The notes under the pieces were generated by a model. The model made no database searches. It saw only the letters and a program-made list of their open reading frames with translations, and was not told where the DNA came from. From assembly GCA_902384455.1 (NCBI GenBank), contig CABMCB010000071.1:32001-96000 (forward strand): a stretch of DNA of 64,000 nucleotides. Reading direction: 5' to 3'. The number at the start of each line of letters is the position of its first letter. The stretch's first letter is position 1. The translations under genes and the position numbers were made by a program. Shown here in pieces: positions 12,338 to 31,437 of this stretch. The DNA is from an uncultured archaeon (GTDB taxonomy: Archaea; Altiarchaeota; Altiarchaeia; IMC4; SCGC-AAA252-I15).

Positions 12338-13210
12338 TCAGGCGAATTGAATCGGTACGTCAATGAGATTCCATCCAGTGTAAAGTGTCTTAAAGTATTC
12401 GCTTCCGCTGCTGCTGTTGCACGCAAAAGTGCATCCGGTTGATTCTCCGGTGTCGGTCCAAGTTGAAACTAAGTCGCATCTGTTGTTGTCGCCTGTGTTG
12501 CTGTCGTCGTCTGATATGTCAAGCCAGGTGAACGACGCCCTGTTGTTGTAGCAGAACCTGTTGTCGTTTAAGGTGTTTCCGGCAGACGCGGCGTTGCTGA
12601 ACGCCATCCCATGATACATGTTGTAGTTGGCTCTGTTCCTCGAAACCGAGTTGCCTACCGACTGCCCCCCCAGCAGAGAATAAATGAATATCCCATAGTT
12701 ATTGTAGTCCGCAGTGTTGTTTATCAACTGATTGTACGACGAATCCCTCAAGTAAATCCCGTAGTTGGTGTTATTGTCGAATCTGCAGTTGATCACCGAA
12801 GAATTCTCAACCCCCAAAAAACCCACTCCATAAAAAAACCCATGAACAACGCAATTCATAATAGTCACATTGTTAGCCGCAATAACCATTATCCCGTAAT
12901 TTGGGCCACCGTTCAAAACGTTATTCTGGCAATCAAAAAACAAATTACTGAAACCAAACGGCCAGCTTATGCACGTGCCAGAATAGTTGTTAACCGGCAC
13001 AGTACCAGCGTACCTGACGCCCCTCCCGCAGGGGCCAGTATCCCCCAAGGCCATGGAACAGTCCACACAAGCGTCAGTTGCGTTTCCCCCAAGCGTAGTC
13101 AAACCGTTTCCGCATATGCAGACGCCCGACCCCGCAGAAGAATACGCTCCCACAAAGCCGGAAGCTGAAATGAGCAGAAGCAAAGCCGAAAAAATAACCC
13201 AACCTTTCAT
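12338..13210 (-). CDS. Secreted NosD/CASH beta-helix protein with C-terminal GWNLI tail
   Basis: Signal peptide; YGIYLRDSSYNQLINN repeats; ends YFKTLYTGWNLIDVPIQFA. Confidence 0.82.
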   Translation of the reverse strand: MKGWVIFSALLLLISASGFVGAYSSAGSGVCICGNGLTTLGGNATDACVDCSMALGDTGPCGRGVRYAGTVPVNNYSGTCISWPFGFSNLFFDCQNNVLNGGPNYGIMVIAANNVTIMNCVVHGFFYGVGFLGVENSSVINCRFDNNTNYGIYLRDSSYNQLINNTADYNNYGIFIYSLLGGQSVGNSVSRNRANYNMYHGMAFSNAASAGNTLNDNRFCYNNRASFTWLDISDDDSNTGDNNRCDLVSTWTDTGESTGCTFACNSSSGSEYFKTLYTGWNLIDVPIQFA

Positions 13211-13270
13211 AAACTCCCCCGAAAATACTTAAGAGTGCAAATAAAAATGCAGCAACAAACCCGTTCCCGC

Positions 13271-14263
13271 ATGAAAACATATCTTGTGCCCGCAGTAATC
13301 GCATTAACTCTTCTTTCCGCAGGATGCCAAAATGCCACACAAACGCCAGATAACAACGAAACTATCCCCTACGCAATTCTCTCGACTCAACCGTACAACA
13401 ACAGCCTATGCGGAGGAACAGGATTCCACTACGAAGAGGGCGGAGTAAAAACTGGGTTAAGGCTTATCATTAAAGACGCAGAAACCCAAGAAAACTTCAC
13501 TGGGCGGGCGAAAGTAACTTTATCGGACTCGTCCCAAGGAAGCATCTTCGCGGGAGAATCCTACTCATGCGACGAAGGGTTGCGTCCCCAAAGTGAAGTG
13601 CTGTCAGTATACGCGCAAGGTTACTCTCCTGCAGTATTTGCGTTCCCAATTACTGAAAACCAGCTTGCGGACGTGGAAGTGAGCCTGCAAAAAAGCTGCA
13701 CGCAAGGACTAACTTGCCTTAAGGACACGGAAGAAAGCATGCGTCTTGAACTCGCAGGGAACAAAACTGAAGCCCAAATAGCACGCGAAAACACAAAGCA
13801 ATACTTCGAAAACATCCTGCTGGAAAACTTCGGCATAAACCCCGCGGAAATCCAACTTACCTGCGCGGAATGCGACATGGGACGCGGAGGATACATCAAA
13901 GCAGCAGGCACAATCGGAAACGCCACATTCACCCTATACCGCAGAACCGGCTGGTGCAGAACAGGAGGAGGAGACTGCGGAAACACAATCTGCCTGACCA
14001 CCAACTCAGACGAACTAATACAAAAAGCAGAAAACAAAATCTGCCCCAACATATACTCCCTAAACCAAACCGAAGTCAACACTGAAGAAGGCGTATACAC
14101 AGTAGTACCAGTATCAGACACGACAAACCAGACCCGCGTAAACTGCCTCACAGGAGCATACACAACAACAAACGGCGACACAAAAACACTCGCACTAATC
14201 CAAGAAGCCAACAGATACAACAGCGCCGTAAAACCCCTAACAGCAAACTGCATAGAACAATGA
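13271..14263 (+). CDS. Cys-rich putative lipoprotein
   Basis: MKTYLVPAVIALTLLSAGC lipobox. Confidence 0.7.
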   Translation: MKTYLVPAVIALTLLSAGCQNATQTPDNNETIPYAILSTQPYNNSLCGGTGFHYEEGGVKTGLRLIIKDAETQENFTGRAKVTLSDSSQGSIFAGESYSCDEGLRPQSEVLSVYAQGYSPAVFAFPITENQLADVEVSLQKSCTQGLTCLKDTEESMRLELAGNKTEAQIARENTKQYFENILLENFGINPAEIQLTCAECDMGRGGYIKAAGTIGNATFTLYRRTGWCRTGGGDCGNTICLTTNSDELIQKAENKICPNIYSLNQTEVNTEEGVYTVVPVSDTTNQTRVNCLTGAYTTTNGDTKTLALIQEANRYNSAVKPLTANCIEQ

Positions 14264-14700
14264 TAAAAATAATAGCCGTAGGCCGACTCAAAGAACCCCA
14301 CTACCAACAGGCGGAGGCCGAATACTATAAGCGGCTTAGGAAGATTGAAGTTTTGGAAATCAAAGAATCTTCAGACAAAAACCCGGAAGTCGCCATAAAA
14401 AAGGAGGCCCGGGAAATCCAAAGTAAAATAAGCGCATCAAGCGACCAGCAAATTATTGCCCTCGAAGCAAGCGGAAAACAAGTGTCTTCCGAAGAATTCG
14501 CCAAACTAATCGCGAAAAAACAAGACACCACCTTCCTAATAGGCGGACCATACGGCCACACACAAGACACGCTCAAAAAAGCCGACTACGTCTTAAGCTT
14601 ATCTCAAATGACTTTTCCTCACCAACTGGCTAGAGTAATCCTCGCAGAGCAAATATACCGGGCACACACAATACAGGCGGGAAAAGAATACCACAAGTAA
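14260..14700 (+). CDS. rlmH: 23S rRNA pseudouridine-1915 N3-methyltransferase (SPOUT)
   Basis: IKIIAVGRLKE, FLIGGPYG, SLSQMTFPHQLARVILAEQIYRA, YHK. Confidence 0.95.
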   Translation: MIKIIAVGRLKEPHYQQAEAEYYKRLRKIEVLEIKESSDKNPEVAIKKEAREIQSKISASSDQQIIALEASGKQVSSEEFAKLIAKKQDTTFLIGGPYGHTQDTLKKADYVLSLSQMTFPHQLARVILAEQIYRAHTIQAGKEYHK

Positions 14701-14720
14701 AACCGAGCTAGTGCCTACAC

Positions 14721-16034
14721 CTAGATTACCTGCGGAATCGAAATCAAATTCCAGTCGGAGAACATCGGCATCCAGAAGTTTCCTATAGTGGTAGTCGTTG
14801 TCGTCGTAGTGGTTGTGGTTGTTGTCGTCGTTGTGGTAGTCGTTGTTGTCGTCTCGGATTCAAGTGTTCCTAAAGCATAAACCCTTCCTAGTCCGCTCGA
14901 AACAAAATACAGTACTCCATTCGCGACGGCTGGGGAGGTGGCTATGCCGTCGTATGCGTCGTAATTCCATATTAAACTCCCTGTAGATGCATTCAGCGCG
15001 TAAAGAATGTTATCTCCGGAACCTACATAAACCACGTCGTTAGAAATCGCCGGGGAGGTGGAGACGCTGTTTCCTGTCGTATAATTCCATACCAGCGCTC
15101 CCGTAGACGCATTCAAAGAATATACGTTGTAGTCCCACGCGCCAAAATACACTTTCCCGTATGCGGCTGCAGGCGAAGAATACAGGCATTGAGCGTCAAT
15201 CTTGTAACTCCACAATACCGCACCATTAGATGCGTTTAACGCATAGAAATTACTGTCATTTGACATCCACACGCAGACATACACCCTACCGTACGCGACA
15301 GCAGGGGAAGACTCGACCACGGCATTAAGCACCAAAGAATTCCAAATTTTCACCCCCGTAGACGCATTCAAGGCATACACCATACCATCCCACGAACCAA
15401 TATACACCACTCCACCCACAACAGCAGGAGAAGAGTCCACATAATGGCCAGTAGTGTAATTCCACACATGCTTTCCCGTCGAAGCATTCAAAGCATAGAC
15501 CCTACGATTGTTCGAACCGAAATACACAATCCCGCCAGCGACAGCAGGCGAAGAATCTATTCCCCCATCAACAGTGTAATAATCCCCCGTAGAATAATTC
15601 CAAACCAACCCCCCAGTCGAAGCATTCAAAGCATAAAACTCGTTATCCCGCGTACCAACGTACACAATCCCGCCAGCGACAGCAGGCGAAGACATTATGG
15701 TATCAACAAACACAGTCGAAAAATTCCACAAATACTCCCCAGTAGACGCATTAAACGCATAAACCCCGCTCCCATAATCCGGCTCCCAAGGAAAAGCCTC
15801 ATAAATACCCGCATACACCACGCCGCCCGCAACCGCAGGACTAGACGACCGACCCGCCATACTCAAATCAGTCGTATAATTCCAAAACGAAACATTACTC
15901 AAAGGACCCACACTCCCCGTAAAACCAGTATGATTCAAGTCACAACGAAACATCGGCCAATCCTCCGCCGAAACAAAACCGACCAAAGAAAACAAAACAA
16001 GAAATACGGCAAATCTCCCGTCCATACCAAACAA
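14721..16034 (-). CDS. Secreted PQQ-type beta-propeller repeat protein with poly-Thr linker and WNLISIP tail
   Basis: DWPMFR..L.HTG start; repeated SSPAVAGGIVY.G..D...YALNASTG..WNY; about 22 Thr; ends MFSDWNLISIPQVI. Confidence 0.9.
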   Translation of the reverse strand: MFGMDGRFAVFLVLFSLVGFVSAEDWPMFRCDLNHTGFTGSVGPLSNVSFWNYTTDLSMAGRSSSPAVAGGVVYAGIYEAFPWEPDYGSGVYAFNASTGEYLWNFSTVFVDTIMSSPAVAGGIVYVGTRDNEFYALNASTGGLVWNYSTGDYYTVDGGIDSSPAVAGGIVYFGSNNRRVYALNASTGKHVWNYTTGHYVDSSPAVVGGVVYIGSWDGMVYALNASTGVKIWNSLVLNAVVESSPAVAYGRVYVCVWMSNDSNFYALNASNGAVLWSYKIDAQCLYSSPAAAYGKVYFGAWDYNVYSLNASTGALVWNYTTGNSVSTSPAISNDVVYVGSGDNILYALNASTGSLIWNYDAYDGIATSPAVANGVLYFVSSGLGRVYALGTLESETTTTTTTTTTTTTTTTTTTTTTIGNFWMPMFSDWNLISIPQVI

Positions 16035-16106
16035 CCATTAAACCAACCAACAAATAAACCCCCCAAAATCAAACTCTTATCTCAGCAACGCGTATTCTCC
16101 TACCAC

Positions 16107-17042
16107 ATGCTTAAGGAAAACGACGCACAACAAGGAAATCAAACGCCCTTCCCAACAGTATACGCCATAGACTACCCTTGGAAGACCCCCGCCTTACTTA
16201 AACTCCCGGAAACCGAATTGAACGCCTGGTTCGATAACATGGAAGCAGGCAGAGACCTGTCCGTAAACGACATCCGACTAAAATACATCGCAGGAAGAAC
16301 AGTCCACTTATTCCGCATGACCCCGCAAACCCTCTACCTGCCAGACGGAACAAAAAGACGCCTCCCCTACACCCCAGACACCCAACAGCCCATGCTAGAC
16401 CCGCAAGACGAAATCATAAGCGTACTGCAAGCACACGTAAAAAACGGAGACATACCCGTACTAGAACTAGGAACACCCCGGCAACACATAGAAAACATGG
16501 TCAGACGACAATTCACGCTAATGGAAACATTCGGAGTAGAACGGCACGGAAGCTTCGAAGACGTACTCGGAACACTACACCACAGACAATACGACACCAA
16601 AGTAGACGTAGTAGTATCATTCGACCAATGCATAAAAGACCCGGAAGGAAACCTATACCCAAAACTATTCATGGAAGTAAACGCATACGGCGCACCAAAC
16701 AACCAACAATACATAAACTACCACACCCACGCCGGCGTAAACAACACATACCCCTCCGCAGGAGACGTACTATGGATGGAATCCCAAAAAAGAACCTCAA
16801 TAACAATAGGCACACTAGAAAACCCAGAAACATACCGAATAACCGAATGGAAACTCAAAAAAGGCCTACAAACATTAATGCCCCAAATCACAACACCCGG
16901 CCAAAGAACAGAAAACCCCTACGGCTGGTACCAAGGAGACCAACTACGCGAAATCATAGACCAAACATTCGACAGACGCGACTACCTACTAACCAGAAAA
17001 AACGGCCACACAACAATAACAGAAACAAACCCCACAAACTAG
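16107..17042 (+). CDS. Hypothetical protein with JAB/MPN-like metalloprotease motif
   Basis: YHTHAGVNNTYPSAGD; start set at MLKENDAQ because the upstream extension overlaps the PQQ gene. Confidence 0.6.
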   Translation: MLKENDAQQGNQTPFPTVYAIDYPWKTPALLKLPETELNAWFDNMEAGRDLSVNDIRLKYIAGRTVHLFRMTPQTLYLPDGTKRRLPYTPDTQQPMLDPQDEIISVLQAHVKNGDIPVLELGTPRQHIENMVRRQFTLMETFGVERHGSFEDVLGTLHHRQYDTKVDVVVSFDQCIKDPEGNLYPKLFMEVNAYGAPNNQQYINYHTHAGVNNTYPSAGDVLWMESQKRTSITIGTLENPETYRITEWKLKKGLQTLMPQITTPGQRTENPYGWYQGDQLREIIDQTFDRRDYLLTRKNGHTTITETNPTN

Positions 17043-17056
17043 AAAAATAGAAAAGG

Positions 17057-17072
17057 TGGGGCCGGGGGGATT
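17057..17072 (-). repeat. 16-bp direct repeat of tRNA-Trp 3' end (att-like)
   Basis: tggggccggggggatt identical to 17679-17694. Confidence 0.8.
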
Positions 17073-17160
17073 AACACCAACCTTTTTCTTTTTGCGAAAA
17101 AGAAAACGCTGACGAAAAAAATATCTGTCCCTTATATTCAGTACTTCTACAATACCTATC

Positions 17161-17673
17161 ATGGAAAAAATATTCTCCTTTTTACCTATTGCTTTTGCTC
17201 TTATCGCCATTAGCTGTATAATGGTATACTCTCCTCTTTCAAAGGATAAGCAACAAGAATTGGACGGAAAAGTATTTTCTGCTATGCTTGTTATGATAAC
17301 CGTTCTATCTGCTTTTTTCATTCTATTCTTACAAAAAAGAGAGGAAATATCAAAAGTAGTCTCAAGCTTTGACGAAAAAAAGAAAGAGACTATAGAACAT
17401 TTTTTTGAAACAGTACAACCAGAACATCGCTTAGGCTCCAAAGCATATAGTGATTTAGCCGATTCTCTTACCGAGATAGAATACCTCCAAGGAAAGTGTA
17501 TGTTACTCCAACAAACAACTTATCCTATCCTTATACTCCTCATGAGCCTAATCCTCACCATTTTCTTTTCACAATTTCAACTGCTTTCAATATTGGCCCT
17601 AATCTATTCCATCCATCAAATGTTTTTGATCTTAGTTATTATCGTTTCTCAAAAACTTTTTATTCATAAATAA
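17161..17673 (+). CDS. AT-rich hypothetical membrane protein (about 4 TM) in tRNA-Trp islet
   Basis: 170 aa, visibly lower GC than flanks, between tRNA-Trp and its 3' duplicate. Confidence 0.7.
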   Translation: MEKIFSFLPIAFALIAISCIMVYSPLSKDKQQELDGKVFSAMLVMITVLSAFFILFLQKREEISKVVSSFDEKKKETIEHFFETVQPEHRLGSKAYSDLADSLTEIEYLQGKCMLLQQTTYPILILLMSLILTIFFSQFQLLSILALIYSIHQMFLILVIIVSQKLFIHK

Positions 17674-17678
17674 ATGTT

Positions 17679-17906
17679 TGGGGCCGGGGGGATTTGAACC
17701 CCCGTCAGCAGGTCACTTCGGCTTTTTGGTTGGTTTCCTTTTTGAAGGCATTGAATACTTGTGGTATTCTTCCTCTGACCCTGTTTTTCGTCATCAAACC
17801 CAATGTTGGGTTCTCAGCGCTCCAAACATATTTGGCTTCCGGCCGAATTGTTTCGGTCGTTTTTGCCGCTGGAGCCCGCCAGGATGCCAGGTTACCCCAC
17901 AGCCCC
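17679..17906 (-). tRNA. trnW: tRNA-Trp(CCA) with 155-nt intron at 37/38 (17714-17868)
   Basis: GGGGCTG/CGGCCCC acceptor stem; GCGGG-CT-CCA-G|intron|A-CCTGC; GGTTCAAATCC T arm. Confidence 0.93.
17714..17868 (-). ncRNA. Intron-encoded box C/D guide RNA (Cm34 of tRNA-Trp)
   Basis: Guide TGTTTGGAGCG-CTGA(D')-stem AACCCAA/TTGGGTT-TGATGA(C'); the N+5 rule hits C34. Confidence 0.75.
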
Positions 17907-17976
17907 ATTTGGGAACGTTTATTATGGGCGTTTTCACTATATAACGTTTGTTTTAGGTTTTTGTGGGGGTGATTTG

Positions 17977-18492
17977 ATGGTGGAGTGCGAGTTGTGCGGT
18001 AAGGGTTTTATGGAGGGGTTTAAGGTTAAGGTTGAGGGTAGTTTGGTGAATTCTTGCGCTGCTTGCGCGAGTATTGGTGTTGTGGTTTCTGAGGTTAGCG
18101 ACCGAGGCAAGCCGAAGTTGAAGTCTGCGGCGGTTGAGGTTCAGTCGGCGCAGGCTGTTAAGCATGCTGTTCTCATTGAGGTTCCTGATGAGCCGGAGTT
18201 GGTTGAGGATTATGGCGGAGTCATTAGGCGTGCGCGGGAGAAGAGGGGTTTGAAGCAGAAGGATTTCGGGCGTCTTATTAATGAGCCTGAGAGTTTGGTT
18301 CACAGGATTGAGTCGGGTCATATTCCTCCTTCGCCTTCTGTTGCCGCTAAAATAATCAAGGCGCTTGGTGTCAGGTTGTATGCTTCGTCTAAGGACGAGG
18401 ATAAGCCGCAGGGAGGTAAGGGTCAGATTCCTAAGGATGTGACGTTGGGCGACTTGGTCGTCATACGGCGTAAGGGCGACAAGCAGAAGTAG
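17977..18492 (+). CDS. mbf1: Archaeal multiprotein bridging factor aMBF1
   Basis: CELCG...CAAC zinc ribbon; ELVEDYG..IRRARE HTH; TLGD. Confidence 0.92.
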   Translation: MVECELCGKGFMEGFKVKVEGSLVNSCAACASIGVVVSEVSDRGKPKLKSAAVEVQSAQAVKHAVLIEVPDEPELVEDYGGVIRRAREKRGLKQKDFGRLINEPESLVHRIESGHIPPSPSVAAKIIKALGVRLYASSKDEDKPQGGKGQIPKDVTLGDLVVIRRKGDKQK

Positions 18493-18500
18493 GTGTTTTA

Positions 18501-19985
18501 TTGGATTCCTCAATTTTGTTTGTTGGCTTGTTCCTTGCGGGAACCGTGGTTTTGTCTCGCATGAAGTTTGAGCGCGTTTTAGGCGTGGTTTTTCTTTTGC
18601 GGACGCGATGGGGGATAAAGTTGATCGACTCGATAGCGAAGTTGTCTCCCGGATTCTGGAAGTTCATGGCGGACGCCGGTTTGTTCCTTTCTTTCGGGGG
18701 TCTTGGAGCCGCTTACCTGCATAGGACTAAGGAGGGCTACAGGCATTTGCAGATTCTTGTTCCTGCAGTGGGAGTGTTGTCTGCAGTGTTCGCTTATCTG
18801 ACGGGGTACGTTGAGCTTGCGGTTGCGGCGCTGGTTCTTTCCGCGTTGGGCGTCGTATTCAGGAAGAGGATGGACGCAGTGTTTGCGGTCACAGTGGGGT
18901 ACTTTACTGTCGCATACCACGCGTTTTTCATGCTGCTTTTTTCGCCCCCGTCAACAATCTCAGTCCTGATTGCGTCTTTTACAGGCGTATTCGGGATGCC
19001 TGTTTTGCTTTTTGCAGGCCTGTTTTTTGGCGCATACCAGATTATGTTTAAGGCGTCCACGATGCCGGGCGTTTCGCCGCTGCTTCCCGCAACCAAAGGA
19101 GGCAATTTAGGGGTAACATTCCCCGGATACGACATATTCATTCCATGGTGGTACGCCTTAATCGCGCTGCTAACTACGCTAGTGTCGCATGAGATAGCGC
19201 ACGGAATAGTCGCCAAAGCTCACGGGGTGCGCATTAAATCAACGGGCTTGCTCACTCTTGGCGCGCTTCCTATCGGCGCGTTCGTTGAGCCCGACGAGGA
19301 GGCGTTAAAGAAGGGTTCCCACCTTACGGCAGCGCGAGTTTACGTCGCAGGCAGCTTCTCCAATCTACTGGTGTCTTTCGCGGCGCTGGGTTTGATTGCG
19401 GCGCTGGTGCTGTTCTCTTTCGTAGGATTGAAGTCTGACGGAGTACTGATTTTCTCGACTTTTGCAGGATCTCCCGCATCCTCGGTCGTCAGTTCAGGAA
19501 GCGTCCTTTACTCGCTAAACAATTACTCCATACTAAACGTTGAGGACTTTGTTTCCGCCGCCTCCACTGTGAAGCCCGGCGACAAAGTTGTTTTGAACAC
19601 GAGCGCGGGAGTAGCCCAGTTCAACGCCGCCGCAAACCCTGATAACTCAAGCAAAGGATTCCTTGGTGTGATGGTCATAGTCAATACCGCCGCGGGAAGC
19701 AGGGCACCCCAGCTTTATTCCGCAATAGGATTCGCAACCACCGCGCTTGAGTGGATTTGGTTTTTCACATTGAACATAGCGCTCGTCAACCTGCTGCCCG
19801 TCGTCCCATTCGACGGAGGATTCATATTCCCCAACTTACTAACCGCGCTGAAACTGAAGCCCGGCCAACTCAAGAAGATAACATACTGGCTCATCGCCTT
19901 GACGGCGTTAACATTCATAATCAACGCGTTACCCCTCATAAAATCATTAGGAGACGCAGTCCTCTCATTTGCGGGCTTAAACTAA
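18501..19985 (+). CDS. Site-2 protease (M50) with PDZ-like region
   Basis: HEIAH, GAFVEPD, AGSFSN, NLLPVVPFDGG. Confidence 0.93.
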   Translation: MDSSILFVGLFLAGTVVLSRMKFERVLGVVFLLRTRWGIKLIDSIAKLSPGFWKFMADAGLFLSFGGLGAAYLHRTKEGYRHLQILVPAVGVLSAVFAYLTGYVELAVAALVLSALGVVFRKRMDAVFAVTVGYFTVAYHAFFMLLFSPPSTISVLIASFTGVFGMPVLLFAGLFFGAYQIMFKASTMPGVSPLLPATKGGNLGVTFPGYDIFIPWWYALIALLTTLVSHEIAHGIVAKAHGVRIKSTGLLTLGALPIGAFVEPDEEALKKGSHLTAARVYVAGSFSNLLVSFAALGLIAALVLFSFVGLKSDGVLIFSTFAGSPASSVVSSGSVLYSLNNYSILNVEDFVSAASTVKPGDKVVLNTSAGVAQFNAAANPDNSSKGFLGVMVIVNTAAGSRAPQLYSAIGFATTALEWIWFFTLNIALVNLLPVVPFDGGFIFPNLLTALKLKPGQLKKITYWLIALTALTFIINALPLIKSLGDAVLSFAGLN

Positions 19986-21647
19986 TTTCTTACCCATGTA
20001 CGGGCCTGCGCGCTCATAACCCAGCTTCCTGTAGTAATCGCGCGTGCCCGCCGCGCTAATCACAATCATCCGGTCGAAACCGAATTCCTCGCGCGCTATT
20101 CGTTCCACCTCAGCAAGAAGCTCGCGGCCCAGGCCCCTATGCTGCCATTCCTCAAGAGGCTTCTCGCCTACTTCCACCATCGGCCCATACACGTGCAGTT
20201 CCCTTATCAGGCCGGTGTTTTTGGTTATTTCAGGGCGGGTTGGATTGTGGGGCGCCCTAAGGCGTATGAACGCGAACAAAGCGTCGTATTTCTCATTCTC
20301 AAACGAAAGGAACACTTCCTTCCCTTCAGAGGCCTCATAGTCCGTACGCTTTATCTTCAATTCCTCCGGCTTGACTTTGGCGTCCGGCGGGAGCTTATGG
20401 TACACTTCCCTGCACCTTATGCACTTGCATTGAATTCCTCTTTCATGCATGTACTCTGAAACAAGCTGGCCGAGGTTGCTGTTTTTGATTCCCGCGGCTA
20501 TGTCTGTGACGGGAATGTCTCGGTTGATGCGCATCGTCCTAACCCACGTCGGAAGAATCCTTTTGATTTCAGCAATAAGCGGAACCGCTGTTTCGGTGTC
20601 ATAAGGCGTGTACTCCCCGCTCTTCCAGCGCTCATAATACTGCGTGTGCTTCATCACGAGAAGAGGATAAATCTTAATGTGGTCCGGGCGGAACCGCGAA
20701 TCCTCAAAGACGGTTTTGGCGGCCCAGACGTCGTAAACAGGGTTTACTCCGTTCAACCCCGGCATCATGTGGTAAGCCACCTTGTATGCGGCGTCCTTCA
20801 ACTGCTGCGTAGAATCGACGACGTCTTGGACAGTATGCCCCCTGTTCACTTTCTTATACAATTCGTCGTCGGGCGCCTGCACTCCCATCTCAACGCGCGT
20901 CACCCCGAAACGCAATAAGTCGTCAATTACCTTCCCCTTCGCATACTCCGGCTTAGGCTCAAAATCAAGGCCCACACAGCGCACGGCGGCTTTCTCGTTG
21001 GCCTCCTTAAGATACTCTATGTTTGCGCCTTTAGCGACGTAAGGATTATTGAAGTATTCTTCAACGTACTTTTCGCAGTCCTCTCCCATGAACTTCTTTT
21101 TGTTTCTGCCGTAGTCATTTAATGCCGCATAAATGCTCGAAACGACCTCCTCCTGAAACTCCATCGGCTGCGCGGTAAGAGTGCCACCCTGCACAACAAC
21201 CTCGACCTTATCCACAGGATGCCCTATCGTCTCCAACTGAGCAAGCCGCATAGTCACAATCAAATAAGGGTCGTATCCGTAGCGTATGGCGCGCAAAGTA
21301 CTCGGCTCCTTGCCGCTATAACTCTGAGGAACACCAAAAGCAACCCCGCCGGGGCAATAAGCGCAACGGCCGTGCGGACAGGCAGTCGGCCTGGTCATAA
21401 CCGCCACCACAGCAACCCCAGAAGCGGTCCGAGTAGGCTTCTTCTTCAGCAAAGAAAGAACAACCTTACGCTGCTGGGGAGTTGCCAGCCGAAGTATGTC
21501 GCTGTTTCTGGGAAACACGCCCGAACCCTCACTCTCCGCAGCACGCCTCTTAGCCTCATCAAGCTCATGGTAAGACGTGATGCGGCCTTTGACTATGTCT
21601 TCGAGTATGCCGGCGAGGCGTTTTTCGGAGACGGGTTCGTTAGCCAT
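19977..21647 (-). CDS. elp3: tRNA uridine(34) acetyltransferase Elp3 (radical SAM + KAT)
   Basis: CPHGRCAYCPGG, QGGT, IRELHVYG, WQHRGLG, YYRKLGY. Confidence 0.96.
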   Translation of the reverse strand: MANEPVSEKRLAGILEDIVKGRITSYHELDEAKRRAAESEGSGVFPRNSDILRLATPQQRKVVLSLLKKKPTRTASGVAVVAVMTRPTACPHGRCAYCPGGVAFGVPQSYSGKEPSTLRAIRYGYDPYLIVTMRLAQLETIGHPVDKVEVVVQGGTLTAQPMEFQEEVVSSIYAALNDYGRNKKKFMGEDCEKYVEEYFNNPYVAKGANIEYLKEANEKAAVRCVGLDFEPKPEYAKGKVIDDLLRFGVTRVEMGVQAPDDELYKKVNRGHTVQDVVDSTQQLKDAAYKVAYHMMPGLNGVNPVYDVWAAKTVFEDSRFRPDHIKIYPLLVMKHTQYYERWKSGEYTPYDTETAVPLIAEIKRILPTWVRTMRINRDIPVTDIAAGIKNSNLGQLVSEYMHERGIQCKCIRCREVYHKLPPDAKVKPEELKIKRTDYEASEGKEVFLSFENEKYDALFAFIRLRAPHNPTRPEITKNTGLIRELHVYGPMVEVGEKPLEEWQHRGLGRELLAEVERIAREEFGFDRMIVISAAGTRDYYRKLGYERAGPYMGKKLV

Positions 21648-21690
21648 ACGGTATCAATTGCGTAGGTGTGAGGAAAAAGAAGGAGAGGGT

Positions 21691-21807: not shown

Positions 21808-21842
21808 AAGACTAATATACGCAGGATGCCTATTTAAACGCT

Positions 21843-22580: not shown

Positions 22581-22603
22581 TCTGCCCGAACCTCTCGCTT
22601 AAG

Positions 22604-23362: not shown

Positions 23363-23529
23363 CAGGAATCGGCCTCCTTATCCAGCGTGTCAAATATAAA
23401 GTACCCTAAGTAGGCGGCGCATAAAATGCCGACCCACAAACCCAACATGTCTTCGCGGATGATATGGACTCCTACCACGACGCCTACCGCCCAAAACCCG
23501 GCAGCACCAACTGCAGTAGCCCTGTCCAT
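23362..23529 (-). CDS. Small 2-TM membrane protein (55 aa)
   Basis: MDRATAVGAAGFWAVGVVVGVHIIREDMLGLWVGILCAAYLGYFIFDTLDKEADS; stop overlaps the dph5 ATG. Confidence 0.6.
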   Translation of the reverse strand: MDRATAVGAAGFWAVGVVVGVHIIREDMLGLWVGILCAAYLGYFIFDTLDKEADS

Positions 23530-23569
23530 ACAGTAAAACAGTTATAACCCTTTTAAGGTAAAAACTGAT

Positions 23570-26254
23570 TCAGTGAATGTTCCCCTTAAGCCACCCAATC
23601 AAGGCGTCAGCCGCCTTAAGCGTGTCCGTGGCCTTGTATCCTGCCACAACAAGAGTGTTGTTGCCTTCAAGGTGAACCACGTAGTTTTCGGAGCTGGCGA
23701 GTATGCTTCCCGCCGATATTGTAGTGAGGTTGTTCACGGAAGGTCCTCCAACCAAAATAAGGTTCTTGTCGGGGTTGGCTTCCTGCGGGGTGACGACCAG
23801 GTTGCCTGTGATCGGAGAGATTACGTGGGTGATTCGGAGGACTTCGCCGCCGACTGTTATGTTGTAGAGCACGACGTTCAGGTTGCAGCATCCTACCGTC
23901 TTGTTAGTGCCTTCGTCCGCCTTTGTTATCTCCGTGTCTACTGCGGTTGATTGTTCCCCCAAACCCAAAAATACTGTGGGGTAAACGTGTTTTGTCGGAT
24001 GGCATAGCGTCACCTCCTCCAGCATCCGCTTGTCGCCGTATGTGGCAGTAAGCCGGTCTCCGCCGGCTGGTAGATACAGCACGGTGTCTCGAGGATTGTT
24101 CAAAGTGGCTCTGACATCCGCAGAATAAACAGGCGAAGAGGAAGATACGCGGTGGGTGGTCGCCTTCACGCTTTGAGCATAAAACCTGTCGTCGGTGCTC
24201 CCGTTGAAATCGCGGTCATACAAATCCACAACATAAAACTCCTCCTCGTCATTCTCGAAAACAAAAAGGACGTCGTTAAGGTTAGGGCTGTGAAGCCCGA
24301 CTGGCTCAGCATTAAGGTCGGCCGAACCGTTCTCAGCGACAGCCCAAAAATACAGCCGGTTGCTGTATCCGTCGAAGTCGTCAAACCTACCAATCTGCAG
24401 CGGATTAGGCGCAACCGTCGTATTGCTGAAATAAATACGCCTATCCTGATCGTACAGAAGAGGCAGGCCCTTGTATGTGCCGAAGAAAACGGATGTGTAC
24501 TCAGGGTCGTCGTCCGGAGTGATCTCAAACGACTCGTCGTTGCTTTCGCCGTCATCAAAGCTGTAAGTCGTCACGTTAAACTTAGTGCTGTTGTACGGTT
24601 CAAGGTTTATGCGGTCGACGTTGCCTGTGAGAACGTTCCTCAATGAAACCTCCATCCTCCTGGGGTTCGTCAACTCCTCCGCATCAACGTACTCCATTAT
24701 CCCGCCCTGCACCATGAGCAATTCCCCCTTCTCAAAAGGTCCGCCGTCAAGCCGCAAAGCATACCTGTTGCCGTCGTCCGCCTGGAATGCGAGCACAGGA
24801 GAGTAACTGCCGTCCTTAGTCAAAATGATGCTGCCGTTAACTCCGCCCCCGCCACTGCACACCGGAACAGCAAAATCCCTGGTCCGGTACCCGTCGAAAG
24901 TGAACAAATACCTCTGAGGGAAAAACAGGCTCTCGTTCTCCCTAAGAGTAACATCCCTGACGTAAGTGACAGTAACATTATGAAGTATAGTGCCGTTCTT
25001 CCCGACATACTCCCGGGTATCCAAAGTATTCCTGAAACCACTAGCATCAGAAGTCTCAGTTGCGAACTGAACACGCCAACCCGCCCGCGAAGAATTCCCC
25101 ACCACAACATCAGACCCATCCTTCAAAACCACCCCCTGAGAGTTATCATAAACCACAGCCTTCGCAGTAACAACGCCATCAGCCTCCTCAGCGTAAATCC
25201 CCGCTATCTCCAGGTTGTCAACCACCCCATTGTTCAAGCGCGTAATCCTCACCGGCACAATCTTCCCGTCAGGCGTCTCAACGTCAAGAATCACCCCCGC
25301 AGGCTTATACTCCCCCGCAAAAAGTATGCTGTCCACCTTAAACTTGTAGCCCAAGAAACTGCTGGTGAAACCTTCGCTGCTGATACCCTCCAAAACCTTC
25401 CCCTTAGCAAGATGAATCTCATTAAGGCCCGCAACATCCTTCACGTAGTATTCTTCCCCGAACAGGAGGAATTTGCCTCTATACTCATAGTCGATGGGCG
25501 CGTCCGACTCCCCTACCCGAGAAAGCGGCAATTCACCTGTTTTCACGGCATAAACAAAGGACTTGCCGTCCACATCCAACTGGAGCCTCTCAAGGTCGTC
25601 GCTGCTTAAGCCGTTCTCAAGCCACTGCAATCCGCTGTAATCCGCCCTAATACTTTCCTCAAAAGTATGCATCGGGTTCTGAAGGGTATCCGAGCAGAAT
25701 CCCTGGCAAAAAAGCCAGTGAATATTCCCGTAATCCTCCTGCCTGAGCACCGAGACATCACTGTGCTCCAGATTACACGCCAGATTATACATCAAAAAAC
25801 CGTCTTTCCCATAAACAAAAGTGCCGTTCAAAAAAGCAAGCCCCACATGCCGCTCATAAAAATCAGCCACACCATTCGCTTTACCATCCTCATCCAACAA
25901 AGCAACCCCCGGCGTAACCTCGCGTTCACCCTGAACATACTTCCCCGTAGCCCCCGCAATAGGCGAAGAAAGAAGAAGCCGCTTAGTCTCCACAACAACA
26001 CCCCCCGAATCATTCTCCTTACGGACCGTATAAGCAAGATTACCCAAAGCCGCCGCAATATTTCCCGCCGCCACAGCATCACTAGAAGCCGCCTGATCAC
26101 CCACAACAATCTGGGCTATAGGCGAATAATCACTGTCAAAAAAGAAACTGCGGTCAAGCCCCCTAGAATCCAACCCACCCATCGCCCACCCGCTAAGCAG
26201 AACAAACACCGCCAACGCAGCCGAACCTAACGTAAAGGCATTCTTCGCCGTCAT
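23570..26254 (-). CDS. S-layer family protein
   Basis: Signal peptide; IVVGDQAASSDAVAAGNIAAALG N-domain and NLILVGGPSVN...LVVAGYKATDT C-domain typical of archaeal S-layer proteins. Confidence 0.85.
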   Translation of the reverse strand: MTAKNAFTLGSAALAVFVLLSGWAMGGLDSRGLDRSFFFDSDYSPIAQIVVGDQAASSDAVAAGNIAAALGNLAYTVRKENDSGGVVVETKRLLLSSPIAGATGKYVQGEREVTPGVALLDEDGKANGVADFYERHVGLAFLNGTFVYGKDGFLMYNLACNLEHSDVSVLRQEDYGNIHWLFCQGFCSDTLQNPMHTFEESIRADYSGLQWLENGLSSDDLERLQLDVDGKSFVYAVKTGELPLSRVGESDAPIDYEYRGKFLLFGEEYYVKDVAGLNEIHLAKGKVLEGISSEGFTSSFLGYKFKVDSILFAGEYKPAGVILDVETPDGKIVPVRITRLNNGVVDNLEIAGIYAEEADGVVTAKAVVYDNSQGVVLKDGSDVVVGNSSRAGWRVQFATETSDASGFRNTLDTREYVGKNGTILHNVTVTYVRDVTLRENESLFFPQRYLFTFDGYRTRDFAVPVCSGGGGVNGSIILTKDGSYSPVLAFQADDGNRYALRLDGGPFEKGELLMVQGGIMEYVDAEELTNPRRMEVSLRNVLTGNVDRINLEPYNSTKFNVTTYSFDDGESNDESFEITPDDDPEYTSVFFGTYKGLPLLYDQDRRIYFSNTTVAPNPLQIGRFDDFDGYSNRLYFWAVAENGSADLNAEPVGLHSPNLNDVLFVFENDEEEFYVVDLYDRDFNGSTDDRFYAQSVKATTHRVSSSSPVYSADVRATLNNPRDTVLYLPAGGDRLTATYGDKRMLEEVTLCHPTKHVYPTVFLGLGEQSTAVDTEITKADEGTNKTVGCCNLNVVLYNITVGGEVLRITHVISPITGNLVVTPQEANPDKNLILVGGPSVNNLTTISAGSILASSENYVVHLEGNNTLVVAGYKATDTLKAADALIGWLKGNIH

Positions 26255-26418
26255 ATCCTCATCCTACAGCACACCAACCCAAGCCGCAAGAACCCCCCAA
26301 ACCCCAATAATCCATAAGATACCGGGGATTAAAAGGGCACTACAGCCGGCAAAAACCCGCTTAATCCACTTCCCCCCACTCTAAAACTGTCAAGAAACAA
26401 AAATACTTTGGTGCTAAG

Positions 26419-26500
26419 CGGGCTCGCTGGGACGCTCAAAATCGCCCTGCGATTTTGGCGCGCCGGAAACCTTCGGGTTTCCGAGCGTTCGAACCCAAGT
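26419..26500 (-). repeat. Duplicate of tRNA-Arg(UCG) 3' end interrupted by a 55-nt structured insert
   Basis: cgggctcgctggga[26433-26487]ttcgaaccca matches 27039-27062. Confidence 0.8.
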
Positions 26501-26531
26501 TCAAGCGTCCACTAAACCGATGACGTGTAGA

Positions 26532-26936
26532 CTAAGTCTTTCTTAATGACTTTTTTATAAACGCGGATGCTATGCGCAACGACTGGAGTCTATTTCGCTG
26601 CAAAGTATGTTGAGAAGTTCCTGGCGAGAATTTTGCTTGAGATTTTTCGGCCTTACTTATCATCGAAGCAAATGCGCGGAGGGCTTCCTGTAAATCGTCC
26701 CGCGTGAAGTTATCCATATCATCGGTTTCCTTGTTCATTAGCGCACATGCAATGTGTAACGCTTTGAGGTTGTTTCGCAGCATCGAATGTTGCCACGTTC
26801 CTGGAGCCAGTTTCTGCTGTGCTTTTTCAGACTTTCTGATTAGTGAAGCTATCGGTCGAAGTGCTTTCTGAAAATCGTCTGCTGTGAGGTTATCTGTAGA
26901 TTGGATGGCCTCGTCTACAGTTTTTTCTTTTTTCAT
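26532..26936 (-). CDS. Hypothetical protein made of two ~60-aa tandem repeats (tRNA-Arg islet)
   Basis: DDFQKALRPIASLIRKSEKAQQKLAPGTWQHSMLRNNLKALHIA versus DDLQEALRAFASMISKAEKSQAKFSPGTSQHTLQRNRLQSLRIA. Confidence 0.75.
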   Translation of the reverse strand: MKKEKTVDEAIQSTDNLTADDFQKALRPIASLIRKSEKAQQKLAPGTWQHSMLRNNLKALHIACALMNKETDDMDNFTRDDLQEALRAFASMISKAEKSQAKFSPGTSQHTLQRNRLQSLRIASAFIKKSLRKT

Positions 26937-27038
26937 GGTTTTGGGCGAAAATTCTTGACAAAAAAATTCAATTTTACGCCTAAAATCAGCTGGCAAGCCC
27001 CCATAGAGGGCGAGCCAAACCGTTCTTTTCCTAACTGA

Positions 27039-27134
27039 CGGGCTCGCTGGGATTCGAACCCAGGTCCCGGGGTTTCTCTAAGCATTGTTGGCTTTCCGAA
27101 GCCCCGTAGGATATCCAAGCTACCCCACGAGCCC
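27039..27134 (-). tRNA. trnR: tRNA-Arg(UCG) with 22-nt intron at 37/38 (27074-27095)
   Basis: GGGCTCG/CGAGCCC acceptor stem; CGGGG-CT-TCG-G|intron|A-CCCCG; GGTTCGAATCC. Confidence 0.93.
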
Positions 27135-27147
27135 TTTATGCGTCTTT

Positions 27148-27200
27148 TTCTTTCTTTGAACCCGAGGGCCTTTCTTTCTTCCTAAGAAAGAAAGGGGCTC
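27148..27200 (-). repeat. tRNA-associated hairpin repeat, copy A
   Basis: GAGCCCCTTTCTTTCTTAGGAAGAAAGAAAG...CAAAGAAAGAA, near-identical to 52492-52542. Confidence 0.8.
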
Positions 27201-27223
27201 TATTCAAGCTACCCCACGAGCCC
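27201..27223 (-). repeat. Duplicate of tRNA-Arg(UCG) 5' end (23 nt, 1 mismatch)
   Basis: GGGCTCGTGGGGTAGCTTGAATA versus GGGCTCGTGGGGTAGCTTGGATA. Confidence 0.8.
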
Positions 27224-27307
27224 TTGACGTCTGATTACGAACTCAAGGATAATACTTTGGGGTGGCGGGCGTTATTAAGCATCCAGACGCCAGCCCTCTT
27301 TCCTGTC

Positions 27308-28231
27308 CTATACGTTGAGTGAGAGTACAATCAGATTCCAGCCCGTATATAAGCTTGTTTGGAAGGGCGATATGCTACAGGGGCTGGAGCATCCCAGAGA
27401 GCGGCCTTCGTCCGTCCAGTTGTAGACCGTGTCGCAGGTGTTGTTGTTTCCTGTGTTGTTGGCGTCGCTTGATATGTCAAGCCATGTGGATGCTGCCTGA
27501 TTGTTTGCGCAGAATGTGTTGCCTGTGAGGTTGTTTCCGCTGGCCGTTGTCCCCAAGAAAGTCATCCCGTTATATGCGCTGTAGTTTACGGTATTGCCGA
27601 AAATGACGTTCCCGCTGGTAAAGGTAAAGGCCGTGGAATTGACGAATATTCCGTAGCTGCTGTAGAGGACGGTGTTGTGGGCGAGGGTGTTGTTTTGCCC
27701 GTCCCGCATGTAGATTCCATAGGAAGTGTGGTTGAGGAGGGTGTTGTTCTCGAGGCGGCAGTTCTGGGATCCCGTCAGCCATATGCCGGTTGTGAACCGT
27801 TCTATGACGCAGTTTTGCACTATAACGCCGGTTCTCGTCGGCAAATATATCCCATAGCCTGAGCCGCTTCCCCTGAGCGTGTTTCCGCCGCAGTCGAACG
27901 TCCTTTCCGAGAAAAAGCGTTGGTCGATGCAGTTTCCGCTGTAGTTTGAGACGGGTACACTGCCGGAATACCAGACTAATGTCGCGCAGTGTGTGCTGTC
28001 GCCCAGCGCGCCTGAGCAGTCCAGGCATGCGTTGGTGGCGCTTCCGCCCAAGGAGGTGTCGCCGTTTCCGCAGGCGCACGTGTCGTTTCCGGCCTGAGAA
28101 TAGGCGGCGGCATATCCTGCGTGCAGGAGGGTGAACGCGAGAATCAGGGACAGAAGAGCTAAAGCGAGAAGCCCCGTTGTTCGCTGCGGTGCCACATGAA
28201 ACCTTACGCGTATCCAGTTAAAACTTGGCAA
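27308..28231 (-). CDS. Secreted NosD/CASH beta-helix protein, paralog of 12338-13210, with GWNLI tail
   Basis: Shared C.CGNG.T.LGG.AT.AC.DCS.ALGD N-domain; ends FQTSLYTGWNLIVLSLNV; exact start uncertain. Confidence 0.82.
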   Translation of the reverse strand: MPSFNWIRVRFHVAPQRTTGLLALALLSLILAFTLLHAGYAAAYSQAGNDTCACGNGDTSLGGSATNACLDCSGALGDSTHCATLVWYSGSVPVSNYSGNCIDQRFFSERTFDCGGNTLRGSGSGYGIYLPTRTGVIVQNCVIERFTTGIWLTGSQNCRLENNTLLNHTSYGIYMRDGQNNTLAHNTVLYSSYGIFVNSTAFTFTSGNVIFGNTVNYSAYNGMTFLGTTASGNNLTGNTFCANNQAASTWLDISSDANNTGNNNTCDTVYNWTDEGRSLGCSSPCSISPFQTSLYTGWNLIVLSLNV

Positions 28232-28272
28232 GAAATTTAAAAAGGGAAAAATAGGCCGGACATGTATCGCCT

Positions 28273-29655
<1,383 letters not shown>

Positions 29656-29656
29656 T

Positions 29657-29754
29657 TAGTTTAAATTTGAAACTAATTTGTTCTATTTTTAGAAAATATT
29701 TTTAAAGTTTAAAGTATTTAGTTTAAAATTGAAACCAGTTTTGGTTTGAAACTA
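29657..29754. promoter_or_regulatory. Three 19-bp imperfect palindromes (YAGTTT-N6-GAAACYA), putative Lrp operators
   Basis: 29657-29675, 29719-29737 and 29736-29754, between divergent gdhA and Lrp genes. Confidence 0.7.
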
Positions 29755-29759
29755 TTGCG

Positions 29760-30362
29760 ATGACAGTCAAACTTACCGATAACGAGAAGAAAGTCCTTGA
29801 GTTCCTGCTCACGGACGGGCGGACATCCGCGACAGAAATAGGAAAGCACCTTGGAATCACTCCCCAAGCTGCAGGAAAAATCAAAGACAAACTAGAGGAG
29901 AAAGGAATCATCAAAGGATACACTGCAATAGTCGACTACTCAAAAGTCGGAATCTCAGTATTCGCAATAGGCTTCTTCAAATTCAAGTCCGGCGCATGGA
30001 CGCGGCTGGAAGACGAAGACATAACCAACCGCATGAGCGGCCCGCATCTTATACGCGTATTCCGCTTCCAAGAAGGAGAATTCACCCACATGGTAGTCTA
30101 CGGATTCCGCTCAATAATGGAACTCGACCACTACTTCCACATACTCCAAACCGAAAGAGGACACATCTCAGAACTCAAAAAACTTTACGTGCTTTCAGAA
30201 TCGAGCATACTCAAAGATTCCCCAAACGAACTCCTGGTGAAAGCAATACAAGAACTAGGCAAAGAAACACTAGCACGGCCGGAGCAGCCGCCTTCTAGCA
30301 GGTATTCTGTAAAGGGTACAACTTTAAAGGATGTTCGGGGTCCAAAGTTATCATTGCGATGA
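29760..30362 (+). CDS. Lrp/AsnC-family transcriptional regulator
   Basis: LTDNEKKVLEFLLTDGRTSATEIG...LEEKGIIKGYTAIVDYSKVG. Confidence 0.9.
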   Translation: MTVKLTDNEKKVLEFLLTDGRTSATEIGKHLGITPQAAGKIKDKLEEKGIIKGYTAIVDYSKVGISVFAIGFFKFKSGAWTRLEDEDITNRMSGPHLIRVFRFQEGEFTHMVVYGFRSIMELDHYFHILQTERGHISELKKLYVLSESSILKDSPNELLVKAIQELGKETLARPEQPPSSRYSVKGTTLKDVRGPKLSLR

Positions 30363-30378
30363 TATGGACTGTGTTTTT

Positions 30379-31437
30379 ATGACGCGGCGGCTGGTTGTTG
30401 GCGTGGTTCTTGTCTGTTTGGTTCTTTGGGGAGTTGTTGTTTCTGAATCTATGTCCCGTGACTTGAGCGTCGATGTTGTTCAAGGTTTTCACGTGTCCAA
30501 TATTTCAAGGGTGGTTTTGGTCTCTTGGGATGGCGTGAGGGTTGCACGGCTTAATGATATGCTAGCGTCGGGTGAATTGGGGAATTTGTCTGCTATTATA
30601 GCTGAAGGGCGGATTACCAACGTCACAATCGCGGATCATTCGGTTACTACGACTGCCCCCGGTCATGCGGCGATGTTGTCTGGCTACGGAAGTAGTGCGT
30701 CTGGAGTGGTGAATAACACATGCGGGATTTCGCTACCTTTAGGGTACTCTGTTTTTGAGCGGCTTAATGCGTCTGTTCTTGGGCTGGCGACTGGTTCTGT
30801 CTGGGGTAAAAGTACTTGCTATGTGCCTGATAGCCTGTTGTCTAATGCTAGGCAGTCCATCTGGTGGTGGGGGAACTTTTCTTTGATTGGCGGTAAGTAC
30901 TCTTCGTCGCGTGCCCGCGCCGGGGGTGTGGCCAACGAGTCGCTTAAGTTTCTTTCGCAATATGGGAACGGGAGTTTCTTTTTGTTCGTTCATTTTACAG
31001 ACCCTGATTATGCGGGTCACATTTTCAGCGAGGGTAGTGCAGAGTATCGGGCCGCCCTTGTGGAGGCGGACGGTGGATTAGGGATTATTACCGAAGAATT
31101 GCGAACGTTAGGTGTGTATAATGAGACGGTGATTATTATCACGACTGATCATGGGTTTGAGGAAAATGGCGCAGGTCATACGTCGGGCGGAGTCAGTAAC
31201 CCCGACTTGTCTGTATTGTTTGTGGCAAGCAACAAAGGGTGGGCTGTCGCGCGGGAAGGCGACCGTAAGGAAACAGATGTTGCGGCGACAGTTTACGATT
31301 TATTCAACGTTAATTCTTCGGCTTTCGTTCCTGCTCTGGATGGAACCTCCCTCGCGGTTCTGCCGGGTAATTTTGCCGTAGGTCTTTCGCCAGGATGGAA
31401 CTTGCTGTCTATCCCGTTTAGCCTTAATTTTGCCTGA
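30379..31437 (+). CDS. Secreted alkaline phosphatase/phosphodiesterase-superfamily protein with GWNLLSIP tail
   Basis: VSWDG, TTAPGHAAMLSG, DPDYAGH, TTDHG, DVAATV; ends FAVGLSPGWNLLSIPFSLNFA. Confidence 0.85.
   Translation: MTRRLVVGVVLVCLVLWGVVVSESMSRDLSVDVVQGFHVSNISRVVLVSWDGVRVARLNDMLASGELGNLSAIIAEGRITNVTIADHSVTTTAPGHAAMLSGYGSSASGVVNNTCGISLPLGYSVFERLNASVLGLATGSVWGKSTCYVPDSLLSNARQSIWWWGNFSLIGGKYSSSRARAGGVANESLKFLSQYGNGSFFLFVHFTDPDYAGHIFSEGSAEYRAALVEADGGLGIITEELRTLGVYNETVIIITTDHGFEENGAGHTSGGVSNPDLSVLFVASNKGWAVAREGDRKETDVAATVYDLFNVNSSAFVPALDGTSLAVLPGNFAVGLSPGWNLLSIPFSLNFA

Follow-up and report, generated by a model that had tools for sequence, protein, structure and literature searches.

Why should four secreted proteins of three unrelated folds, encoded on a single stretch of archaeal DNA, end in the same short C-terminal peptide? 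The stretch, hereafter the window, comprises 64,000 nucleotides (C71:32001-96000) of an Altiarchaeota-type metagenome-assembled genome (MAG; here G000, 2.41 Mb in 103 contigs, 91.9% complete and 0.9% contaminated), and an earlier note on it had proposed from the sequence that the tail forms a beta-hairpin which docks its carriers onto a receptor by strand complementation. We found that the tail is the first beta-hairpin of a very common, undescribed extracellular tandem beta-sandwich module, and that relatives of this archaeon encode small secreted proteins made of the same module lacking precisely that hairpin. We lean slightly towards a natural split domain, with many donor hairpins and one acceptor, as the way in which these tails work. 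For the window's own organism we hold the same explanation less firmly, until an acceptor is found there.

Each of the four open reading frames (ORFs) is present with its tail, and the earlier description of four secreted proteins with three folds and one common tail agrees with their Pfam classes (beta-helix/NosD twice, PQQ propeller, type I phosphodiesterase). The first is a secreted right-handed beta-helix of the NosD/CASH type with a hydrophobic N-terminus (12338..13210, minus strand, 290 amino acids (aa); PF13229, 1.8e-14; PF05048, 1.2e-13), whose tail YFKTLYTGWNLIDVPIQFA (12341..12397, minus strand) has its Trp 11 residues from the end and scores 36.4 bits against a profile built from all tails of the genome. 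A secreted PQQ-type beta-propeller of 437 aa (14721..16034, minus strand; PF13570, 5.1e-58; PF13360, 2.6e-48) carries the tail FWMPMFSDWNLISIPQVI (14724..14777, minus strand; Trp 10 from the end, Asp replacing Gly, 36.0 bits) behind a linker of 22 Thr, and a second secreted, NosD-type beta-helix of 307 aa (27308..28231, minus strand; PF05048, 1.5e-19) ends in FQTSLYTGWNLIVLSLNV (27311..27364, minus strand; Trp 10 from the end, 30.3 bits). The fourth is a secreted enzyme of the type I phosphodiesterase/alkaline-phosphatase superfamily (30331..31437, plus strand; PF01663, 7e-19), 368 aa long from the first ATG at 30331 with a likely start at 30379 (MTRRL...), and its tail FAVGLSPGWNLLSIPFSLNFA (31372..31434, plus strand) has its Trp 13 residues from the end and scores 28.0 bits. 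None of these four tails is covered by any Pfam or NCBIfam model. A Ser/Thr/Gly linker ahead of the tail, which had been described for each protein, is clear in some members and does not extend to all (poly-Thr in three of 15).

The tail is not confined to these four genes. A six-frame scan over the whole genome identified 15 long ORFs that end in the motif L-[YF]-x-G-W-N-L-[ILV]-[SDA]-x-[P]-x-x-x-stop, a larger set than first noted, and the 11 outside the window include a subtilase of family S8, two CARDB proteins, a lamin-tail domain (LTD) protein, an NHL protein, beta-helices, a second propeller and one protein without family assignment. Altogether, at least eight passenger types bear the tail: beta-helix (six), PQQ propeller (two), phosphodiesterase, subtilase S8, CARDB (two), LTD, NHL and the unassigned one. 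In the alignment of the 15 tails W-N-L is invariant and the preceding Gly is present in 14, with consensus L-x-x-G-W-N-L-I-S-x-P-x-x-x; the distance from Trp to the end is 10 residues in 11 tails and 11, 12, 12 and 13 in the remaining four, so that seven to ten residues follow W-N-L, with neither a transmembrane (TM) helix nor a basic cluster. The last residue is Ala in six, Ile in four, Val in two, and Phe, Leu and Asn in one each, and in three members the tail sits behind at least 20 Thr. No known CTERM or other Pfam or NCBIfam family covers the tails of this genome.

Position and export signals go together with the tail. A signal-peptide-like hydrophobic segment, called from a hydropathy estimate and not by a dedicated predictor, is present in all 14 tail ORFs with an intact N-terminus, the fifteenth being cut at its N-terminus by a contig end. 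The strict string GWNL[ILVF] occurs in the genome 14 times at a C-terminus and once elsewhere, in a 40-aa ORF, and never internally in an ORF of at least 150 aa. Extending to 15 tails the profile search that had been suggested for four, we obtained 28.0-36.5 bits for the members, and the next best matches in the genome reached 19.7, 18.5 and 12.0 bits; likewise, a DNA pattern that includes the stop codon gave 11 matches against one with a reversed-pattern control. Because the core of the tail is encoded by varied codons (six Leu codons, mean nucleotide identity 66%), its conservation is at the protein level. The tail is thus, as had been anticipated, a modular and strictly C-terminal tag on Sec-type secreted proteins. 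One of the 11 pattern matches is a decayed sixteenth beta-helix-plus-tail gene, a 36-codon ORF (G000:C11:30257-30364, plus strand) that ends in ...GCTQTCATQATESTTLFTGWNLINLLLNI-stop and whose upstream frames are closed.

The origin of the tail became apparent in related genomes, 39 of 41 of which have a match to the tail profile at E<=1. There the motif exists in two forms. Some loci have the truncated tail, with a stop 10-12 residues from the Trp; others have a longer module at the C-terminus, built of two tandem units of about 85 aa, the first of which starts with GWNLIS.P, with 'G.GYW[IVL]...' at the unit's end. The second copy (unit B) opens with GWNLVGY.S, and the tails resemble the first (unit A, GWNLIS.P) and not unit B. 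An AlphaFold2 (AF2) model of a 197-aa member (predicted local distance difference test, pLDDT, 92.7; predicted template modelling score 0.83) shows each unit as a small beta-sandwich, the first hairpin being formed by strands 28-34 and 37-42 (the latter WNLISL); a complete unit has this hairpin, a short helix and four further strands, G.GYW among them. On the unit profile the tails of all 15 proteins cover positions 2-21, the hairpin alone (positions 3-19 in the case of YFKTLYTGWNLIDVPIQFA), so that the four window proteins, like the whole set of the genome, carry module fragments without a full domain. The tail therefore corresponds to strands 1 and 2 of unit A, in line with the beta-hairpin first proposed.

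This module is widespread. A profile of 12 single units retrieved 18,945 representative clusters at E<=0.001 (6,835 at 1e-10 and 304 at 1e-30), usually matched over two C-terminal stretches in proteins 150-3,400 aa long. Nevertheless, Pfam and NCBIfam hold no model for the tandem module, no PDB sequence matches it at E<=1, Foldseek gave no structural match at E<=0.001, a wide structural search (VIA) reached at best a Z of 4.3, inside the noise range described for the tool, and the ESM Atlas returned only 'hypothetical protein' with scores of at most 0.85. The earlier note had admitted that its idea would fall if the tail were simply the truncated first strand of an already described domain: the tail does consist of the first strands cut from a larger extracellular domain, but that domain belongs to no described family and the truncation looks functional.

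Two further arrangements of the module were observed. In G023, a 925-aa protein (L044:589-3363, plus strand; G023:C12) ends in an additional tail (...IPLHNGWNLISLPVSV-stop) behind a complete tandem module, and module and donor hairpin can thus share one chain. A conserved gene pair is present in L021, L030 and L047 (G035, G034 and G039, respectively); its first gene codes for a signal peptide, a linker and the tandem module only (223-300 aa, with a degenerate hairpin in L047), and its second for a small Ig-like protein with a truncated tail at its end.

The counterpart of the tail was found when the relatives were searched with the unit profile, which revealed small ORFs whose first unit aligns only from position ~22-30. 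These represent a conserved protein of about 175 aa that consists of a signal peptide with small residues at -1/-3, a unit A starting at position 23-25, in the helix, and a complete unit B, and that carries no donor tail of its own. It is a beta-sandwich encoded without part of its own edge or core strands, and its break point fits that of the tails, which cover positions 2-21. We refer to it as the acceptor. A census with a profile that includes the signal peptide (ORFs of 132-192 aa whose alignment starts at profile position 1-5) identified stand-alone acceptors in eight of the 61 genomes of the phylum (G007, G008, G010, G015, G017, G022, G029 and G039, that of G017 being cut by a contig end), and five more are present in public protein and metagenome data (P0152, P0154, P0155, P0156 and L111). 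Identity among eight aligned acceptors falls as low as 23%, which argues that the hairpin-less architecture is old and maintained. When one acceptor was used as query in a metagenome scan, the 28 loci retrieved were 27 ordinary full modules and a single acceptor.

In two relatives the acceptor is embedded in a conserved five-gene surface cassette (L036:607-5777 in G010; L032:2-4267 in G015), which codes in order for an LTD protein with a full module, a TM-anchored protein, the acceptor, and two smaller C-terminally TM-anchored proteins. The second gene product, about 470 aa long, contains the Cys-rich motif 'C..G..N..E...DCGG.C..C' and has its TM anchor at the C-terminus. In some genomes the acceptor is near-identical to part of a neighbouring gene. 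We also observed a 162-aa ORF (G050:C72:519-968, plus strand) that matches positions 24-174 of the acceptor profile with only about 12 residues upstream, and that may be another acceptor whose signal peptide is absent or of a different kind.

The proposed docking of the tail into the acceptor is supported by a predicted complex. We modelled a pair from one genome, G010, which belongs to the family of the window's genome and has 12 tails, using acceptor residues 22-179 (without signal peptide; alignment of eight sequences) together with the 40 C-terminal residues of a tail protein (21 aligned sequences). The three runs scored 0.94, 0.94 and 0.93, against 0.02 for the best of three controls; the score mark applied is met by 116 of 157 solved complexes and by two of 215 mismatched pairs, a calibration that is rough here, own alignments having been used. 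The runs share at least 91% of their contacts, with a partner pLDDT of at least 62. The predicted interface involves tail residues 19-40, with G29-S34 (GWNLIS) lying against acceptor residues 73-78 (GYWVKV) and further contacts to unit B at residues 106-111 and 161-165, and the acceptor itself is modelled at pLDDT 92-93 with the tail versus 74-78 with unrelated partners. As no like structure has been solved, the prediction does not reproduce a known complex, although what the model has learned about the intact fold may have contributed to it. It shows that the two pieces are complementary, which does not imply binding in the cell. Together with the hairpin-less acceptors of the relatives, it nonetheless suggests docking onto a dedicated receptor by strand complementation, as had been proposed.

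The taxonomic distribution of tails and acceptors is consistent with a functional link. The stop-including pattern has at least three matches in 10 of the 61 genomes, which all belong to one order, and the 12 genomes of the two other families have no match; the truncation point is identical in at least 10 genomes of six genera. Acceptors are present in none of the 38 genomes without a pattern match, in eight of the 23 with at least one, and in six of the 10 with at least three. The co-distributed receptor gene that had been called for may thus exist, in that the acceptor never occurs in tail-free genomes, although kin genomes are not independent and the pattern is only suggestive. Full modules are present in all nine tail-rich relatives and in 14 of the 31 others. 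When a stricter pattern (GWNLIS.P...stop) was run over 185,579 species, 63 places matched, and by reading their translations by eye we recognized 28 clean terminal tails plus one remnant. All 29 lie in archaeal MAGs titled Candidatus Altiarchaeota, Methanobacteriota, Euryarchaeota or uncultured archaeon; the other places were in-frame stops, TGG ends that belong to internal full domains, or three bacterial frames without upstream context. Since tails are confined to archaeal MAGs and 27 of 28 metagenome loci are full modules, the split seems to have arisen in this one lineage, from a domain that is itself widespread.

These data lead us to propose the following scenario. In this archaeal lineage the module would have been split, many cargoes keeping only the hairpin as donor and a separate small secreted protein providing the module without hairpin as acceptor. 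After Sec export, the hairpin of the cargo would occupy the acceptor's empty slot next to the GYW strand, rebuilding a complete module non-covalently and in trans, and the rebuilt module would give the cargo whatever a fused module provides, most likely retention in the cell envelope. A partner in trans is favoured because a peptide of 18 aa, flexibly tethered, cannot fold by itself. For the window's organism, where no acceptor was found, we infer this mechanism from its relatives.

What takes the place of the tail in homologous proteins points to the same function. P0159, an orthologue and the sole database homologue of the 290-aa window protein (39% identity), has a TM helix followed by RKR at its end, exactly where the window protein has its tail, a beta-helix protein of G025 bears a full module at that place, and the LTD protein has a full module beside the acceptor in six relatives and only a tail in G000. 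These three replacements suggest that the tail probably serves anchoring or envelope retention. Candidatus Altiarchaeum is reported to have a double membrane, a periplasm of about 32 nm and Sec-exported hamus subunits (PMC4460559). With such an envelope, a soluble acceptor could, speculatively, act in the periplasm. The broadest form of the proposal, in which a hairpin tag of about 18 aa on a dozen-odd unrelated enzymes per genome would snap into one acceptor and thereby organise the proteome of the periplasm or surface in an archaeon with two membranes, seems to us plausible, if not quite something that we would favour at present.

Several observations weigh against the split-domain scenario. 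The most serious is that no acceptor was found in G000, despite its completeness, by four profile and phmmer searches (with a rest-of-domain profile, the acceptor profile, the genome's own modules by phmmer, and a 341-unit profile) and by the acceptor census. Marginal matches in these searches were examined and rejected as noise. The only rest-of-domain sequences in the genome are two large proteins with complete, divergent tandem modules that possess their own hairpins (C96:6458-9925 and C94:71224-75369). Stand-alone acceptors were likewise not detected in the tail-rich genomes G023 (93% complete), G027 (85%) and G019 (57%), and congeners of the latter two do have one. In the G000 locus syntenic with the acceptor cassette, the LTD orthologue is split over two contigs (the C3 end and the C56 start), the remaining cassette genes lie scattered, and an exact 60-nt search found no longer public contig spanning the C3 end. 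Either the acceptor gene was missed, through fragmented assemblies or near-identity to a neighbour, or the tails use another receptor. Moreover, a single acceptor gene would need to accommodate 3-13 tail genes, and having only a signal peptide the acceptor is probably soluble, which sits uneasily with a retention of the rebuilt module. The co-occurrence of acceptor and tail comes from kin genomes that are not independent and is only suggestive, the complex score measures the model's confidence that two pieces of one fold fit and not binding, and the AF2 model of the 290-aa window protein was built from a shallow alignment of six sequences and is poor outside the core.

That no acceptor was found in G000 or G023, 92-93% complete, is also an argument for a different partner. 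In the window's genome the hairpin might dock by strand augmentation or hairpin exchange on another receptor, such as the S-layer or hamus-like protein of the window (23570-26254, 894 aa), the C96 and C94 modules or an outer layer, and the stand-alone acceptor would then be one option among several. We regard this as unlikely, yet deserving real weight. Six of the 15 tail genes lie on the contig of the S-layer gene, four of them within 20 kb of it, and an S-layer-like paralogue, similar to the central portion of the 894-aa protein, is encoded about 3.2 kb before the window by a 353-aa ORF, in which a hairpin-like LTPDWNSISIPLDV (G000:C71:28786-28833, minus strand; 18.5 bits), the only N-terminal instance of the hairpin, follows straight after the signal peptide. 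In G025 an S-layer-like protein, cut by a contig end (L041:1789-2352, minus strand; G025:C96), has at its C-terminus a partial unit (positions 32-81) without hairpin and helix, a possible link between S-layer-type proteins and acceptor-like fragments. However, the C96 and C94 modules possess their own hairpins, the S-layer protein of the window has no match to the unit profiles, and none of the present results speaks for the docking onto that protein suggested in the earlier note. That the tail would instead act in cis or between like molecules, by pairing with its passenger or, in oligomerisation, with another tail, so that no receptor is needed, appears improbable to us. Six members are beta-helices, which an extra terminal hairpin could cap, and the full module plus extra tail of the G023 protein suggests chain formation; but the same tail occurs on at least eight unrelated folds and also behind the long Thr linkers, and in the AF2 model of the 290-aa protein, for all its shallow alignment, the beta-helix core is confident and tail residues 268-290 fall below pLDDT 50, with no packing against the passenger.

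A strictly C-terminal element that co-occurs with signal peptides on many unrelated cargoes, in a lineage for which two membranes are reported (PMC4460559), might also be read as a signal for a processing or sorting enzyme, to be cleaved before attachment to a lipid, a glycan or the outer membrane in the manner of CTERM or beta-signals. This, too, we judge to have little chance of being right. The tail has neither the TM helix nor the basic cluster of such signals, and G000 has no match to the exosortase/archaeosortase family PF09721 (positive in the control M. jannaschii) or to PGF-CTERM TIGR04126 (positive in the Haloferax and Methanosarcina controls), in agreement with the view of the earlier note that the tail differs from PGF-CTERM/archaeosortase signals; a signal of that type was rejected, both its tripartite structure and its cognate enzyme gene being absent. 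An outer-membrane beta-signal was rejected as well, the last residue being aromatic in only one of 15 tails and the passengers being beta-helices, propellers and soluble enzymes, not barrels. A sorting signal would in addition leave unexplained why the tail is the first hairpin of a domain and why hairpin-less modules exist. The least probable of the explanations considered, to our minds a very remote one, is that truncation removed the modules and left the tails behind without a function. They are clearly derived from the full module, the LTD orthologue of G000 has a tail in place of the full module of its relatives, and one decayed 36-codon remnant exists; nevertheless, 15 copies with a fixed stop distance (identical in 11), an invariant W-N-L and diverse codons, a truncation point shared across at least 10 genomes of six genera, and 28 clean cases over 185,579 species are not what decay would leave.

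Two observations on the source genome were made along the way. The complete-module protein on C96 (G000:C96:4001-9925, plus strand) contains a single in-frame TGA at 6455-6457, at a position where a paralogous repeat within that protein has a Cys (GYH*KD versus GYQCKD). Selenocysteine was rejected at this position, and a mutation or a sequencing error is likelier, since ARAGORN found no tRNA-Sec. The same program predicted 131 tRNA genes with 47 anticodons, at most six copies each, an unusually high number that could be caused by tRNA arrays, over-prediction or mixed strains.

The split-domain scenario, to which we now return, has parallels among known systems, of which donor-strand complementation comes nearest to it in mechanism. 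In chaperone-usher pili an incomplete beta-sandwich is completed by a donor strand, usually one N-terminal strand, from another polypeptide. Donor-strand complementation is also reported for archaeal threads, cannulae and bundling pili (PMC9715654; 10.1101/2024.12.30.630787; PMC12337348). The likeness would lie in the completion of an incomplete beta-sandwich by another chain, extracellularly, after Sec export and without an energy source. In donor-strand systems, however, like subunits polymerise into a filament, whereas here the donor would be a two-strand C-terminal hairpin on many cargoes, with one free-standing acceptor and no polymer implied; head-to-tail polymerisation is not what we found, as the donors of G000 are 15 unrelated cargoes and the acceptor lacks a donor tail. 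In the cohesin-dockerin system many secreted enzymes share a common C-terminal docking tag for a shared receptor module, the dockerin being a duplicated Ca-binding loop-helix of about 70 aa. There, two complete, independently folded domains interact, in contrast to the two fragments of one fold and the tag of about 18 aa proposed here, and no dockerin or cohesin family is among the Pfam matches of the 15 tail proteins (E<=0.01 or 0.001).

Engineered pairs are based on a split fold as well: in SpyTag/SpyCatcher and in split GFP with its strand 11, a short terminal peptide restores a truncated beta-domain. As in those pairs, the terminal peptide here is the missing strand element of a beta-domain, but they are man-made and SpyTag forms an isopeptide bond, while the archaeal pair would be natural, presumably non-covalent and distributed over many cargoes. 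CTERM-type signals (PGF-CTERM/archaeosortase A, PEP-CTERM/exosortase, LPXTG; 10.1101/2023.06.07.544157) combine a motif, a TM helix and a basic cluster with cleavage by a membrane enzyme. They share with the tail the use of a short conserved C-terminal tag on many varied Sec-exported surface proteins, and differ from it in having the helix and basic cluster, and a cognate enzyme and signal not found in G000. The GWNLIS...GYW module itself is the direct relative, since its first hairpin is homologous to the tail and its remainder to the acceptor; its ordinary members (18,945 representative clusters, and 27 of the 28 metagenome loci) have both units intact and fused to the cargo. In our literature searches on the motif, Altiarchaeal surfaces, strand complementation and C-terminal sorting, neither the motif nor the module nor the split was described among the papers listed. 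Strand complementation is known; its use as a cargo tag on many proteins would be new.

If true, the split module would represent an undescribed way to attach many secreted proteins to a common partner, with one fold divided into tag and acceptor, and a non-covalent natural counterpart of SpyTag/SpyCatcher; the pair may even be a ready-made natural peptide tag and receptor for protein engineering. Attention is also drawn to an uncurated extracellular domain family of about 19,000 representative clusters that has neither name nor structure. For the biology of the organism, the scenario would explain how extracellular enzymes are organised in a poorly understood archaeal lineage that has not been cultivated and whose envelope is unusual.

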